This document shows, piece by piece, positions 4,702-46,858 of a DNA stretch of 64,000 nt. The stretch is from a virus: IMG/VR virus record IMGVR_UViG_3300046543_000082, positions 1 to 64,000 of that record, one strand, 5' to 3'. Position 1 is the stretch's first letter. The number at the start of each line of letters is the position of its first letter. The position numbers and the translations under genes are program-made. The notes beneath the pieces are model-generated. The model was not told where the DNA came from, did not search any database, and saw nothing but the letters and a program-made list of their open reading frames with translations.

Positions 4702-5285
4702 CCGATCATACAAAGCTGCGCGAACTGGCGGAAGCCGCGACGCCAGGAGAATGGTTTCCGGAAACGTACAGCGATGGTCATCGACAGGTATGCGGAAATC
4801 AGCGTGTCGTTGACGATGACGAAGAGACGTATGCGACGATAGCCGATGTGCACAATCGCGCGGATCATGAGTATTTGGTAGCCGCCAATCCATTGATGAT
4901 CATCGCCCTGCTCGACGAAATCGGCTGCCTTCGCAAGAGTCTCGCCGAAGCCCTGCTATCCGCCGAGCGAGCGCGAGAAGAACGGAACCGCGAGCATGTC
5001 CGCCTCAATGCTGAGTGGATGGCGAAGTGCGAGGAGTTGCGGAAGGAGCGCGACCACTACCAGATGGCGGCCGAAGCTGAGGCCAAGTTCGCAGACGAGT
5101 TTCGAGAGAAAGCAGAGGAGTTGGCGGACAAGATGCGCATGGACATTATGAATATCCCGTGCAAAGAACCGGAGCATTTCGAAGATGCAGCAGTTCGGAT
5201 GGCCTATCGCGTAGGCCACCGAGACGCAAGGCACGCTGCGTTCGATATTGTTGGCTCGGTCGTGGCGAAGAAGGAGGGAGCGTAG
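4698..5285 (+). CDS. Ead/Ea22-like protein
   Basis: LRELAEAATPGEW and AANP..IIALLDE motifs. Confidence 0.8.
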   Translation: MTDHTKLRELAEAATPGEWFPETYSDGHRQVCGNQRVVDDDEETYATIADVHNRADHEYLVAANPLMIIALLDEIGCLRKSLAEALLSAERAREERNREHVRLNAEWMAKCEELRKERDHYQMAAEAEAKFADEFREKAEELADKMRMDIMNIPCKEPEHFEDAAVRMAYRVGHRDARHAAFDIVGSVVAKKEGA

Positions 5286-5483
5286 ATGAAGCTTCGACTC
5301 GACGAATGGTTGCGCCGGGAATTCGAGCCGGCGCCGGCCATCCGAACCGCGCGCCTGTGGATTCGTGACGGAAAAATATGGCCGGCGCCCGTGAAGGTCG
5401 GGCGAGCGTACTATGTCGATCAGAACGCCACGTTTCAGGACCGATCAACCCGGCCTTCACTGGCCCAGCGCATACAAAAATAA
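5286..5483 (+). CDS. xis: Excisionase (lambda Xis-like)
   Basis: LDEW...P...T.RLW.RDGKIWPAPVKVGRAY; directly upstream of int. Confidence 0.9.
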   Translation: MKLRLDEWLRREFEPAPAIRTARLWIRDGKIWPAPVKVGRAYYVDQNATFQDRSTRPSLAQRIQK

Positions 5484-6592
5484 TGGCAGCCCGCCCACGG
5501 ATAAGACGCCGCGCCAACTGGCCGGCGAACCTGCATGAGCCGCGCCCCGGGTACTATACGTGGCTCGATCCGCGCGATAAGAAGACGCACATTCTTGGCC
5601 GCATTCCGCTCGCGCAGGCCATCCACGAGGCGCAAGAGGCGAACGTGATCGTGGAGAACGGGAAGCTGAATCGAACGCTTGCAGAGCGTCTATCAGCCCC
5701 GACGAACACGGTCGCCGACCTTATCAAACGTATGTCGACGGACGGCCAGAAGGCTTCGACGCTGAAAACGCGCGGGTATCTCGATGGAGCGATTGTCAAT
5801 GCAATCGGCACAGTCCCATGCAACGAACTGACGACAAAGCACGTCGCCGAGTTTATCGAGCCGCTTGTGGAGCAGGACAAAAAGCGCACGGCTCAGGCGA
5901 TTCGCAACCGCCTGATGTCAATTTGCCGGAAGGGAAAGCAACTCGGCTGGATGACAGAGAACCCGGTCACGGACACGGAACGGCCGAAGCCGAAGACGAA
6001 ACGGCGCCGGCTGAAGCTGGAAGAATTTCAGGCGATCTTCGAGAAGGCGCCGGAAGTGAACGACTGGTTGCAGAACGCGATGCTTCTGGCGCTCGTCTCA
6101 GGACAGGATCGGGCAACCATCGCGCGTTGGGAACGCTCGTTCTCGTCCGGAAGCGTCGTCCTTCTTCAGCGCTCGAAGACTTCGGTGAAGATCGAGATTC
6201 CAGTTGCGTTGCGACTCGACGCGATTGGTCTGTCGCTGGCTGATGTAATCGCGCGTTGCAAGTCGACCGGCGTCGTTAGCAAGTACCTGATCCACCATAT
6301 CAAGAATCAGGGGCGCGCCGTGCGTGGCTCGCATGTGAAGCTCGGCAGCATATCGATGGCGTTCGCCGCGGCGCGCGAGCTGGCGGGAATCACAGGCGAC
6401 GATCCGCCCACGTTTCACGAGATTCGCAGCCTGGCGAAGCGGCTTTACGACGAGCAGGGTGGCGTCGACACGAAAGCGTTGCTCGGCCACATGACCGACG
6501 CGATGGCGGAAATGTACGCCGACAGCCGGGGAATCGCGCCGATCAAAGTCACGATTGAGGAAAAAAATGGCGAGACCAAGAAGCAAGGGTAG
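5483..6592 (+). CDS. int: Tyrosine integrase with lambda-type N-terminal arm-binding domain
   Basis: PTFHEIRSLA, LLGH and catalytic Tyr (MYADSR); TAATG coupling with xis. Confidence 0.95.
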   Translation: MAARPRIRRRANWPANLHEPRPGYYTWLDPRDKKTHILGRIPLAQAIHEAQEANVIVENGKLNRTLAERLSAPTNTVADLIKRMSTDGQKASTLKTRGYLDGAIVNAIGTVPCNELTTKHVAEFIEPLVEQDKKRTAQAIRNRLMSICRKGKQLGWMTENPVTDTERPKPKTKRRRLKLEEFQAIFEKAPEVNDWLQNAMLLALVSGQDRATIARWERSFSSGSVVLLQRSKTSVKIEIPVALRLDAIGLSLADVIARCKSTGVVSKYLIHHIKNQGRAVRGSHVKLGSISMAFAAARELAGITGDDPPTFHEIRSLAKRLYDEQGGVDTKALLGHMTDAMAEMYADSRGIAPIKVTIEEKNGETKKQG

Positions 6593-7145
6593 AACGGGGC
6601 TTCCGGAGAATCTATATTCTCAGATCAGAAACGGAAATGAGCATTTCAGATACCGAAGTCTTATAACTGGACGTACTAAATCAATTGGAACTGACCGCGA
6701 ACGCGCCGTCCAATATGCCGAAGAAGCCAATCGTGAAGTTGAAGGTAGGCGTGGTCTTAGAACTCACGCTCAGCAATCTGTTAAGCATGGCTATATAGAC
6801 TATCGTGGTCTTTTGGAGCAGGACACCATTGCCATGAAGGCACTGATGTTCGATCACATTTGCGGCGTCTATTTCCTATTGGATCAGGAAACGATAGTCT
6901 ATGTCGGTCAATCGCTGAACGTCATGGCACGTTTGTCAGATCACAGAAGAGAAGGACAAAAGCAGTTCAATCGAATTTTCGTCGTCGAATGCAAGATCGG
7001 AGAATTGACGCATCTGGAGGCACTATACATCGACAAGTTCAAGCCGATCTATAACCTAGCACGGCCGGCCGTTAACCCCGAGTCAACGGCATGGGATGCA
7101 TCTCTTTCAGACCTGCTTCGAGGGGCAGTGTATGAGCAGAATTAA
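6567..7145 (+). CDS. Integrase-N (arm-binding) domain fused to GIY-YIG nuclease
   Basis: N-term MARPRS..R..LPENLY...FRYR..ITG....IGTDRERA...A.EAN; C-term GVYFL...VYVGQS.N...RL..H...LE..YI....P.YN. Confidence 0.85.
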   Translation: MARPRSKGRTGLPENLYSQIRNGNEHFRYRSLITGRTKSIGTDRERAVQYAEEANREVEGRRGLRTHAQQSVKHGYIDYRGLLEQDTIAMKALMFDHICGVYFLLDQETIVYVGQSLNVMARLSDHRREGQKQFNRIFVVECKIGELTHLEALYIDKFKPIYNLARPAVNPESTAWDASLSDLLRGAVYEQN

Positions 7146-7217
7146 CGACAAATATTCCACGCCTGTTCAACGCCCATCCGAAAAACGTTGCTGATAAAGG
7201 GATCTAGGTTAATCGGT

Positions 7218-7243
7218 ACCACCTCGGAGATGTAGGCGCCTGA
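7218..7243. other. Putative attP core of unit A
   Basis: GC-richer island in AT-rich intergenic DNA after int; minus strand reads SGAYISEVV. Confidence 0.5.
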
Positions 7244-7332
7244 AGACGTTGATTTTCGCTTTATTTTCAAAGAATTATCTCCGTTTCAGCACGCAAAAAC
7301 ATGTGCCGAAATGAGCAATTACGTCCTAATGA

Positions 7333-7345
7333 AATCAAATACTTG
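7333..7345 (+). promoter_or_regulatory. IHF binding site in attP arm
   Basis: AATCAAATACTTG matches WATCAANNNNTTR. Confidence 0.6.
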
Positions 7346-7435
7346 CGCTTAGTTTTGAACAGATGAATATCGCGCTGTAGTAAAATCCGCGCGCTGACTG
7401 AATAAAAACTAAGCAAAAAATACCGAGAGGAGATT

Positions 7436-8587
7436 ATGGGCCTACTTCGAATAATCCTGGCGCTGTCCGTCTTCGCGGCGCATGCCTACGACGCCTTTGG
7501 CGGTGGCGCGCGGCTGATGGACTGGCATTCCCCAGCGTCGAGAAATGGCATGCACCTGTACGTCTGGTCGGGGCATGCCGTCTTCGCGTTCTTCATCCTG
7601 TCCGGCTTCTACATGGCGATGGTGATCAACGAGAAGTATTCGAAGATGCCCGACGGAACGCGACGCTTCTATTTCAACCGCGCGCTGCGGCTGTATCCGG
7701 CGAACTGGGTGATCCTGGCCGGGTTCGCGCTGGTCTATGTCGCGAGCGGTACGCCGTCGTTTCTCACATTCACCCACGGCGAATCGTGGATGACGCCGAT
7801 CGCGTTCTTCTGCAACCTGTTCTTCTTCGGCGCGGAGATCCTTCCATTCAAGCATCCGCAGAACTGGCAGTATGTCATCGGCCCGATCTGGTCGCTGAGT
7901 CTCGAAGCCTACTTCTACATCCTGGCGCCGTTCATCGTCACGCGGTCGCTGAAGTCGATTGCGCTGCTGGCTGCCGCGAGCGCTGCGCTGCGCCTCACGC
8001 TCTACCATACCGGCGTCGGTCCCGAGCCGTGGCGATACTTCTTCTTCCCGTCCGATCTCGTCTTCTTCCTGATGGGCGTGATCGCGTACCGCCTGTTTGC
8101 CTGCGTGAAGGATGCCGCGTGGACGAAGCCGGCCGGGATCTTCGCGGCTGCAGTGATCTTCGGTCTGATCGCGTTCCCGCCATTCTGGAAATATGCTTCC
8201 AATCTCGACTGCTGGCAGAGTTGGGCGTTCTATTTAACCGTCGCCGCGGGCACGCCGTTCCTGTTCAGCCTGACGAAGAACAGCGCGATCGACAACTTCA
8301 TCGGCCAGCTTTCATACCCGGTTTATCTCGGGCACATCTTGGTCTTCTCGGCGATGCTGTGCTTCTACAATGGCCCGATGGACAAGGGATTGCTGTCGCT
8401 GATCCTGACATTCATCATGGCAGTCGGCATTTATCTAGCCGTGGACAAGCCGATCGATTCCATCAGGCACAACATCGCTAGGCGGCGGGCGCCGGCGCAG
8501 GAGCCGCAACCGGACCGTACTGCGCCAGTGCTGCCGACAGAGCCGTCTGGAACGCGATCAGGCCAATCTGGATTGCGGTCTTCGTAG
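7436..8587 (+). CDS. Acyltransferase-3 family membrane protein (Oac/OafA-like; probable lysogenic conversion)
   Basis: LR..LA..V..H, AV..FFILSGF, R.LRLYP, WSLSLE..FY, G.LSYPVYL.H motifs; next to attP. Confidence 0.9.
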   Translation: MGLLRIILALSVFAAHAYDAFGGGARLMDWHSPASRNGMHLYVWSGHAVFAFFILSGFYMAMVINEKYSKMPDGTRRFYFNRALRLYPANWVILAGFALVYVASGTPSFLTFTHGESWMTPIAFFCNLFFFGAEILPFKHPQNWQYVIGPIWSLSLEAYFYILAPFIVTRSLKSIALLAAASAALRLTLYHTGVGPEPWRYFFFPSDLVFFLMGVIAYRLFACVKDAAWTKPAGIFAAAVIFGLIAFPPFWKYASNLDCWQSWAFYLTVAAGTPFLFSLTKNSAIDNFIGQLSYPVYLGHILVFSAMLCFYNGPMDKGLLSLILTFIMAVGIYLAVDKPIDSIRHNIARRRAPAQEPQPDRTAPVLPTEPSGTRSGQSGLRSS

Positions 8588-45680: not shown

Positions 45681-45866
45681 ATGAGCGAGCTTCTCACACC
45701 TGACGAAGTGGCTTCGAAATTGAAGATCGAACGCCGCTCTTTCTTGCGTACAGTAGCCAAGCAGCCGGACTTCCCGGCGCCGATTCGGATCGGTCCAAGA
45801 ATCCTACGCTGGCATGCAGAGCATGTTGCTCAGTGGATCGAGCGAAGCACGCGCCGTGCGGCCTAG
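45681..45866 (+). CDS. AlpA-like excisionase
   Basis: LLT..EVA..L......PDFPAPIRIG....RW; convergent with int. Confidence 0.85.
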   Translation: MSELLTPDEVASKLKIERRSFLRTVAKQPDFPAPIRIGPRILRWHAEHVAQWIERSTRRAA

Positions 45867-46858
45867 TCCAGTTTGGCCGCCAACTCTTCGGGCGTCGGGT
45901 TGTAGTAGATCAGCAATGATTTCAAATCCCGATGCCCGATCACGCGCGCAAGCTCCAAGACGGTCAACTTATTGGAAAGCCGAGTACAAGCCTCGTGGCG
46001 GCTGTCGTGAAAATGCAGAGTTGTGATACTTGGCATTTCCTTTGCGGCCTTCTGGCGCGCCTTTCTGAAAAGCGTACCGAGCGATTGGCCGTGGAACGTG
46101 AAAACATTCGTTTCGTGGCGACCCCGGAGTTTTGCGATTAGATCGACAGCTCGCTTTGATAGCGGAACATGGCGCTCATCATAGTTCTTCGTCTTGCTCA
46201 GGTGGACGCTTCTTGGGCTGACTTCCGGCCAATGTAGAGAGCATAGTTCACCGACGCGCATCCCTGTTTCGATTGCCAGCATGAAAGCGACAGCCATTTC
46301 CTGCTGTTTTGTCGTAACCGGTTGATCTTCCGAATAACCCAATGCCGAGCACATGATTTTTATTTCCGACTCGGAAACACGTCTGTTGCGTGGCTTCGGA
46401 TCGCGCGGACGCTTCACGTCTTCAAATGGGATCGAATCGAGCCATCGCCATTCTTTCCTCGCTATCTGGAAGACGGACATAAGCAGGTTCCATTCTCGAT
46501 TCACGCTGGCTGCTGATACCTCTTTCAATCGAGCGTCGCGCCAAATGGCAATGTCAGTCTGCGTGACCTCGCTGATTATCTTGTTCCTGAATGGAAGTTC
46601 TCGACCGAGCTTGGCGAGGCGGACACGTTCCCATCGCTCGCCTTTCTTGGTCGGCGCCACTTCCTCTGCGTACTTGACGAGCGCTTCTGAGACGAAACGC
46701 TTTGGCAAATCACCTCTGACGCCTGCTAGTATTTCCGCCTCGCGAGCAGTCGCCCATGCGACAGCCTGGGCCTTGGTCGGGAACGTGTCAGAATCCCGCA
46801 CACCGGCCTTCTCGATCTCTGCCCGCCATCCCTTGGAACGCTTCCTGTAGTACGCCAT
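45863..46858 (-). CDS. int: Tyrosine integrase (short type)
   Basis: ETGMR.GEL, TKN, HFHDSRHEA, GHRDL..L..YYN. Confidence 0.95.
   Translation of the reverse strand: MAYYRKRSKGWRAEIEKAGVRDSDTFPTKAQAVAWATAREAEILAGVRGDLPKRFVSEALVKYAEEVAPTKKGERWERVRLAKLGRELPFRNKIISEVTQTDIAIWRDARLKEVSAASVNREWNLLMSVFQIARKEWRWLDSIPFEDVKRPRDPKPRNRRVSESEIKIMCSALGYSEDQPVTTKQQEMAVAFMLAIETGMRVGELCSLHWPEVSPRSVHLSKTKNYDERHVPLSKRAVDLIAKLRGRHETNVFTFHGQSLGTLFRKARQKAAKEMPSITTLHFHDSRHEACTRLSNKLTVLELARVIGHRDLKSLLIYYNPTPEELAAKLD

Follow-up and report, generated by a model that had tools for sequence, protein, structure and literature searches.

What is the DNA-binding domain of an integrase doing on a nuclease, and why does the gene for such a protein lie between a phage integrase and its attachment site? 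This question is raised by the gene of protein P0001 (6567-7145; ATG at 6567, TAA at 7143-7145), which encodes 192 amino acids (aa) in a 64,000-nt stretch of viral DNA (positions 1 to 64,000 of the IMG/VR virus record IMGVR_UViG_3300046543_000082; hereafter the window, with features on the plus strand unless stated otherwise). An initial annotation of the window had taken the product for an integrase arm-binding domain joined to a GIY-YIG nuclease, and had suggested either a homing endonuclease or a weapon against competing phages. The reading that we favour, with about even confidence, is that of a free-standing endonuclease of homing or rival-excluding type, which would be aimed at those arms of the phage attachment site (attP) that lie next to the integrase gene (int) and would travel on a mobile cassette about 0.6 kb long.

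Residues 1-60 of P0001 (6567-6746), which begin MARPRSKGRTGLPENLY, form an arm-binding domain of the lambda Int type. They match PF09003 (Arm-DNA-bind_1; E value 1.5e-10, 41.4 bits against a cut-off of 22) over profile positions 1-63 of 74, and a profile of 24 members of the P0001 family matched the N-terminal domain of lambda Int (1kjk) end to end (E 1.9e-13). The AlphaFold2 (AF2) model (mean predicted local distance difference test score, pLDDT, of 76) has two well-supported parts with a low-confidence linker between them. Its arm domain consists of three strands (16-21, 24-30 and 37-41) and a helix (44-70) with a pLDDT of about 83, and it superposes on 1kjk in Foldseek with a template modelling (TM) score of 0.77 and a root-mean-square deviation of 2.3 Å over 49 residues; 2wcc was matched as well. 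Family profile, structural profile match and predicted fold thus agree with the lambda Int pattern that had first been read into the N-terminal ~60 aa. Residues 61-98 (6747-6860) comprise the end of the long helix and the linker (pLDDT 52-67) with a KH..D.RGLL motif that is conserved in two family alignments.

Residues 99-165 (6861-7061) form the GIY-YIG catalytic core, modelled as a beta-beta-alpha-beta-alpha fold (strands 100-106, 109-116 and 136-141; helices 119-129 and 144-158; pLDDT >90). The core matched the GIY-YIG domain of UvrC (1ycz/1yd3) in Foldseek (E 2e-4, probability 1.0, TM 0.67), as did the 24-member family profile in a profile comparison (E 2.3e-4). We confirmed that the GIY-YIG motifs are intact, since the catalytic residues are all present and G100-V-Y102, Y112-V-G114, R122, H126, E151 and N163 are unchanged, or conserved to at least 90%, in alignments of 24 and 145 sequences; PF01541 matches 105 of the 145 relatives at E ≤ 1e-3, the best at 9e-13. 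The C-terminal tail (residues 166-192; 7062-7142), modelled at low confidence, carries an invariant Trp (AWDASL..LLG) that is kept only in the closest subfamily. In Pfam, P0001 gave no match to PF00589 or Phage_int_M and is therefore not a tyrosine recombinase, these domains being supplied by its neighbour at 5483-6592; it also gave no match to Exc or HTH_17, and hence has no Xis-type fold, a separate excisionase gene (xis) lying at 5286-5483. PF10544 (T5orf172) was likewise not matched, the nuclease matches being to PF01541 and PF19239 only. A 103-aa database protein (P0049; 6834-7145) is identical to residues 90-192 of P0001, its gene call having apparently begun at M90; as this call has no arm-binding domain, it may explain why the architecture went unnoticed.

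A word-index protein search returned about 25 full-length homologs (157-195 aa, 30-63% identity to P0001), of which the named ones, such as those of Burkholderia gladioli and Caballeronia, are called only 'phage integrase Arm DNA-binding domain-containing protein'. With phmmer, 3786 of 1.84 billion cluster representatives were matched at E ≤ 1e-3. Among the best 145 clusters (50% identity), at least 43 have the Arm-DNA-bind_1 plus GIY-YIG architecture, and the same GIY-YIG clade is also fused there to HTH_17 (7 clusters), DUF4224, Arm-DNA-bind_4 or a winged helix-turn-helix (HTH) domain, all of them partners typical of integrases and excisionases. The full architecture was absent from the cultured phages of INPHARED and the plasmids of PLSDB; a scan of genome contigs gave GIY-YIG-only matches and no full-length relative, and a scan of metagenome contigs nothing new beyond extra copies of one phage (L001). 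The initial annotation knew of no such described system, and our literature search returned no description either; both the family and its architecture are undescribed. Other members of the clade, of about 245 aa and with an unrecognised N-terminal part of 130 aa, lie between DNA polymerase A and PD-(D/E)XK/SNF2 genes in unrelated phages (L021:5767-10890 and similar loci among L019-L034), which is a typical place for free-standing homing endonuclease genes.

Linkage of the nuclease gene to integrase genes is strict. In the IMG/VR contigs, a tyrosine integrase directly adjoins the nuclease at every full-length homolog with upstream sequence, as would be expected of the int/att association proposed at the outset. 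The order xis-int-nuclease is found in the window and in L001, L002/3, L006/7, L009-13, L015 and L017, with the nuclease start overlapping or closely following the int stop; in the window the int stop (6590-6592) falls inside the nuclease gene, so that the overlap noted earlier measures 26 nt, with the nuclease in the +1 frame. At L005/L045, L008 and L035 the neighbouring integrase is divergently transcribed and is of the Int_N type, of a P4-like Arm-DNA-bind_3 type and of another type, respectively. Several proviral contigs stop 0-190 nt past the nuclease stop, and integrated examples end at the att junction.

Some of these loci have features of their own. In L005 (6595-7400) and L045 (7770-8600) the nuclease adjoins a 337-aa non-lambda integrase, the intergenic region holds a stretch that by eye resembles a tRNA 3' end (no Rfam hit in L005), and an IHF (integration host factor) consensus with GGGTTTTGAACAG stands directly after the nuclease stop and has the look of a leftover distal arm from a window-type attP. 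In L001 (4298-5389; likewise L178 and L179) the integrase gene is broken off by an in-frame stop after residue 86, and the nuclease gene that follows is intact; this sequence was found in three metagenome samples at 99.9% identity, so that the phage may have a dead int and yet keep the cassette. In L008 (5521-6201), the phage with the P4-type integrase, a gene with an ATP-dependent DNA ligase domain (PF01068, E 1.3e-29) follows immediately downstream of the nuclease.

Close relatives without the gene define the cassette precisely. Empty alleles were found by searching with the integrases, and the survey proposed in the initial annotation produced them, with clean boundaries, in four Int lineages (window, L096, L010 and L006 types). 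The Int proteins of L087-L089 are 93-95% identical to that of the window, and the DNA is 87-88% identical across 5263-6557; in place of window positions 6558-7150 these relatives have about 22 nt (GGTGGCTAGAGTTTTGAACGCTG), and homology restarts at ATTCCACGCCTGTT (7156) and continues through a conserved region to about 7360. The inserted cassette (6558-7150, ~593 bp) thus comprises a ribosome-binding site and the open reading frame (ORF), and its insertion alters the Int C-terminus from ...KVTIGG* to ...KVTIEEKNGETKKQG*. The ribosome-binding site GAGGA, read from the sequence at 6557-6561 and brought by the cassette, stands 5 nt before the ATG. The same clean indel separates L096 (with the gene) from L097 and L098 (without it). 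Among loci with sequence past int, the gene is present at 5 and absent from 11 of the L010 type (Int at least 94% identical), and it is present at 2 and absent from 4 of the L006 type. As claimed before, the gene is richer in AT than its neighbours (47.5% GC versus 59% upstream), and in 13 of 13 loci its GC content is 4-12 points under that of the flanks. In L170 (1763-2011) and L175, of the L006 type, the slot occupied by the nuclease in L169 and L173 holds a different small ORF of 82-93 aa with CxxC and HH motifs, so that the junction of int stop and arm repeats is a hotspot for more than one cassette; by eye this ORF suggested an HNH protein, an assignment that we dropped as there was no Pfam match.

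The empty alleles also reveal what the cassette abuts. There, three tandem repeats spaced at 11 bp begin right behind the int stop; in the window lineage they are of the TTTTGAAC kind, the L010 type has TTTTGGnGAGG and the L006 type TTCTAGACG; 11-bp tandem TTGAAC repeats are seen in L088, L097, L098 and L104. Beyond the repeats lies a site that fits the IHF consensus WATCAANNNNTTR; a conserved block follows it, and then another IHF-like site and one more copy of the repeat. This arrangement mirrors that of lambda, which has three tandem P' arm sites on the int side. Two L010-type loci, L112 and L118, pass into host-like sequence right after ...tatggtatcaaagcctg, while the other loci of this type continue as phage, which places the crossover about 100 nt past the int stop and identifies the region as attP in the L010 type. 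L112 (4190-4690) and L118 are integrated prophages whose host flank opens with an ORF starting MKKARTWLDEHG..., ArsC/Spx-like by eye, which gives the bacterial side of the L010-type attachment site.

In the window, alignment with L087-L089 leaves residual int-proximal arm-type repeats (ATTCCAC and GTTCAAC) at 7155-7171, the first TTTTGAAC copy of the empty alleles being missing. A conserved block at 7226-7250, GGAGATGT(A/T)GGCGCCTGAA, shared with L087-L089, is the candidate attP core of this lineage, placed by conservation and not by an observed junction. It is followed by an IHF consensus site at 7333-7345 (AATCAAATACTTG, equal to WATCAANNNNTTR), whose position is kept in nearly all related attP regions, and by a distal arm-type repeat TTTTGAAC at 7353-7360 with equivalents in L101, L104, L005 and L045. 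A simple repeat search of 6500-7500 returned no convincing arm repeats, which become visible only against the empty alleles; in that comparison, the repeats, the IHF consensus and the conserved core block back the earlier claim that the nuclease gene ends at an attP arm. Just past attP lies an acyltransferase_3 gene (7436-8587; PF01757, E 9e-21), probably a lysogenic-conversion gene that modifies surface polysaccharides; in relatives this position is taken by other small genes, for secreted proteins or lipoproteins.

The arm repeats differ between alleles with and without the cassette. All 11 empty alleles of the L010 type have TTTTGGnGAGG-type repeats, whereas the cassette loci reaching past the nuclease stop (4 of 4; the fifth, L144, ends at that stop and was left out of the count) have TTTTGGGATAT / ATTGGCGGAAA / TTTGGGGATAG. 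Despite these differing repeats, the Int N-domains are the same in cassette-bearing and empty alleles. Repeats are also altered in other lineages, L096 having two TTTTGCCTGA copies (compared to L098) and the window having lost the first copy (compared to L087-L089).

In the L010-type lineage the cassette has spread recently. Its presence is scattered on the maximum-likelihood int tree, where 4 changes are needed and at least 2 are forced by well-supported branches; L144, which has the cassette, pairs with L138, which does not, at 97/97 support. Across the five cassette loci int is 93.2% identical on average (6.8% different), and the 521 nt that reach from the int stop across the nuclease gene are 99.85% identical (0-2 differences). 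Among these loci pairwise diversity falls from about 10% ahead of -55 nt to about 0% in a stretch that extends to +576 and includes the three arm repeats, and then rises to 2-5%; in empty alleles it is 3.6-14% across the same junction. The final 55 nt of int are conserved with and without the cassette, so that in effect the shared tract has its left boundary at the int stop. The near-zero diversity through gene and repeats indicates that the recently spread unit is the gene together with its own arm-repeat set.

The N-domains of the nucleases are diverse and interleaved with those of the integrases, and are usually not closest to that of their own Int. As had been noticed at first, the N-domain of P0001 is clearly unlike that of the neighbouring integrase (BLOSUM local score 49, self scores 319-336); the corresponding score in L009 is 67. 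L004 is the sole reciprocal pair (score 117), and co-variation of the nuclease N-domain with that of its own Int was rejected as a rule, being true only there. In L005/L045 the nuclease N-domain is closest to window-type Int (L005 score 138) despite a quite different neighbouring integrase. Judged from these alignments, the pattern fits targeting of non-self arms together with repeated domain exchange.

How might such a protein act? The cassette has its place precisely between the stop codon of int and the arm repeats of attP nearest to int. We propose that the Int-like N-domain would read the arm repeats, or adjoining sequence, at the int-attP junction of related phages or prophages without the cassette, and that the GIY-YIG domain, on a flexible linker as in I-TevI, would cut close by. 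Repair off a cassette-bearing copy would then convert the rival allele, which amounts to homing; if no repair followed, the rival attP or genome would be destroyed, which amounts to marker exclusion in competition for the same bacterial site (attB). Homing and rival exclusion are two outcomes of one activity. The allele with the cassette would escape because the arm repeats next to its int are altered or partly displaced, and these repeats would still serve its unchanged Int. The AT-rich gene, its precise presence or absence, its recent spread with short flanks and the altered adjoining repeats together fit a homing-type element. Of the two ideas in the initial annotation, a common core has therefore gained comparative support (sporadic occurrence on the int tree, near-identity across int backgrounds and repeats that travel along), which applies to homing and rival exclusion alike. 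More tentatively, and with distinctly less conviction, one may see in gene and repeats a two-part module for warfare at att sites, in which a nuclease that reads rival arms would be joined to linked, cleavage-resistant repeats usable by a shared Int. If this were true, the attP of competitors would be destroyed or converted when Int is expressed, which would decide attB occupancy and drive diversification of arm repeats, Int and nuclease N-domains.

Several points weigh against the idea of an endonuclease aimed at rival attP arms. Arm binding and cutting are predicted functions only, and P0001 itself scores 20.6 bits with PF01541, below the cut-off of 22.6. As the nuclease N-domain is seldom closest to that of its own Int, the DNA it would read need not be Int arm sites. 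Spread is documented in the L010-type lineage alone, with a nuclease that is only 39% identical to that of the window, and the window lineage is represented by a single cassette-bearing example. Between lineages, divergence of the nuclease keeps pace with that of Int (55-63% versus 55-63% identity, and 36-40% versus 34-36%), which points to spread within lineages and not between them. A beneficial gene moving by ordinary homologous recombination would leave an identical pattern, and the altered arm repeats could be the hitch-hiking flank of a diverged donor.

An alternative explanation is accordingly that of a lysogenic-conversion or defence gene (moron) that attacks unrelated phage or plasmid DNA. 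The att slot would then be merely a permissive hotspot, the gene would have spread by ordinary recombination through its benefit to the lysogen, and the Int-like domain would be a DNA-binding head with no tie to att arms. We consider this rather unlikely. The GIY-YIG region of P0001 does match two PADLOC models, PDC-S14 (E 1.4e-8) and UzuA (1.6e-5), but the matches are limited to the nuclease core (residues ~95-159, against models of 277-320 positions) and the full-length architectures differ. A moron would suit the acyltransferase_3 gene as the next gene past attP, the different ORF that fills the same slot in L170 and L175, the low GC content and an N-domain unlike that of the resident Int. 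However, our scan found no promoter-like site before the nuclease gene and no terminator between int and it; the gene therefore looks co-transcribed with xis-int, which is not the expression expected of a prophage defence gene. Recurrent fusion to recombination-type domains (Arm_1, Arm_4, HTH_17, DUF4224) and strict adjacency to four integrase types are likewise unexpected for a generic defence gene, and the travelling of altered arm repeats with the cassette also speaks against it.

The same apparent co-transcription with xis and int, with starts that overlap or abut, could instead suggest an accessory factor of site-specific recombination, which would bind arm-type sites in its own attP, attL or attR and modulate integration or excision without acting on rivals, whether as a competitor or partner of Int or Xis or through DNA-relaxing nicks. 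The position of the gene within ~100 bp of the arm repeats, the arm-repeat set carried by the cassette itself and the true Int-N fold of its N-domain are all in keeping with such a role. We nevertheless judge it improbable, because the gene is missing from 11 of 16 L010-type loci (about two thirds of near-identical int-attP loci) and is thus dispensable for recombination, and because the nuclease residues are strictly conserved, which would be needless in a pure competitor. The nuclease also adjoins integrases without a lambda-type arm domain (L005, L008 and L035), and its low GC content and sweep-like spread fit a selfish element better.

Finally, the initial annotation had speculated that the A7 run (6561-6567) might fuse Int to the nuclease by a +1 slip, to which we added slippage in transcription as another route. 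The run does exist within the 26-nt overlap, as the spacer between GAGGA and ATG, with frames (+1 to int) that permit it, but we rejected such a fusion as the main product, finding it highly implausible, since no other lineage has an A run at the junction (an 18-nt spacer in the L010 type, a TGATG overlap in L096, a GTG start in L006 and a TTG start in L001), the cassette brings its own ribosome-binding site and the family members are uniformly ~160-195 aa long.

The genes upstream of the nuclease in the window are those of a lambda-type recombination module. The run opens with the excisionase (5286-5483; PF07825 Exc, E 2.4e-15), followed by a tyrosine integrase of 369 aa (P0002; 5483-6592) that matches PF09003, Phage_int_M, phrog_1 and phrog_7244, can be aligned from end to end with lambda Int 1z1b (E 5.4e-46) and has the H-x-x-R, H and Y motifs. 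PF00589 misses this integrase, in which the equivalent of R212 reads GQDR (GQR in lambda). A second tyrosine integrase (45863-46858, minus strand; PF00589, E 2.1e-22) is found in the same 80-kb virus record, which therefore holds two integrase-bearing units. Rfam gave nothing in 6400-7500.

Returning to the nuclease, the nearest described precedent in logic is Odn (ICP1 Gp88), an origin-directed chimeric nuclease (Barth, Nguyen & Seed 2021, eLife; PMC8263062). Its N-terminal DNA-binding domain is copied from the RepA of a satellite, its C-terminal domain of the GIY-YIG superfamily is of homing-endonuclease origin, and the nuclease cuts the origin repeats of the satellite (PMC8263062). The target evolves by restructuring its own repeats (PMC8263062), to which the altered arm repeats seen here may be likened. 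Similar to Odn, P0001 has an N-terminal DNA-binding domain and a C-terminal GIY-YIG-superfamily nuclease in the same order, its head resembles a site-specific binder of repeats (RepA on iterons for Odn, Int on arm repeats for P0001), and its nuclease part has relatives among putative homing endonuclease genes. The two differ in that Odn has a T5orf172 nuclease and a RepA_N head, whereas P0001 has a PF01541-like nuclease and an Int arm-binding head; in that the target of Odn is a satellite origin, while the presumed target of P0001 is an arm of attP in related temperate phages; and in that the activity of Odn has been demonstrated, while P0001 is known from sequence and model alone.

In its anatomy P0001 is, by analogy, a modular GIY-YIG endonuclease of the I-TevI/Seg kind with a new head and a reversed domain order. 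In SegA-G and I-TevI, too, a flexible linker connects the GIY-YIG core with a distinct DNA-binding module, and they share with the present family an AT-rich gene between conserved genes, sporadic occurrence in close relatives and spread with short flanking tracts. Their nuclease domain is N-terminal, compared to C-terminal in P0001, their binding modules are Zn finger, HTH or NUMOD, and they belong to lytic T4-type phages; we know of no such nuclease at an int-attP junction or with an integrase-derived domain. The N-domain of lambda Int itself (1kjk, 2wcc, 1z1b) shares with P0001 the R-P-R tail, the LPxNLY, YxYR.P and LG.DR..A...AN motifs and the fold. P0001 differs in having no core-binding or catalytic recombinase domains, and so cannot recombine DNA; the partner of its arm domain is a hydrolytic nuclease. 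HNH-AP2 homing endonucleases of cyanobacteria and phages carry AP2-type domains, with a three-stranded sheet, on homing nucleases. They too have a three-stranded beta-sheet head, related in fold to integrase arm domains, that targets a mobile nuclease, but they have a nuclease of the HNH family, a binding domain of another subfamily and no link to att sites.

If our reading is true, P0001 would be the first known case of a nuclease guided by an integrase arm-binding domain, and also of a mobile nuclease with its niche at the int-attP junction of temperate phages. It would also be an independent second case, after Odn of ICP1, of a nuclease retargeted by copying the site-specific binding domain of a rival. 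Because nature supplies alleles in pairs, one with the cassette and one without, that have the same Int and different arm repeats, the idea is directly testable, and the combination of compact, programmable DNA-binding heads with a monomeric nuclease may interest tool builders. For the phages themselves, such a nuclease would offer a concrete explanation for the fast diversification of arm-type repeats and Int N-domains, and would add a new layer to the competition of temperate phages for a shared attachment site.

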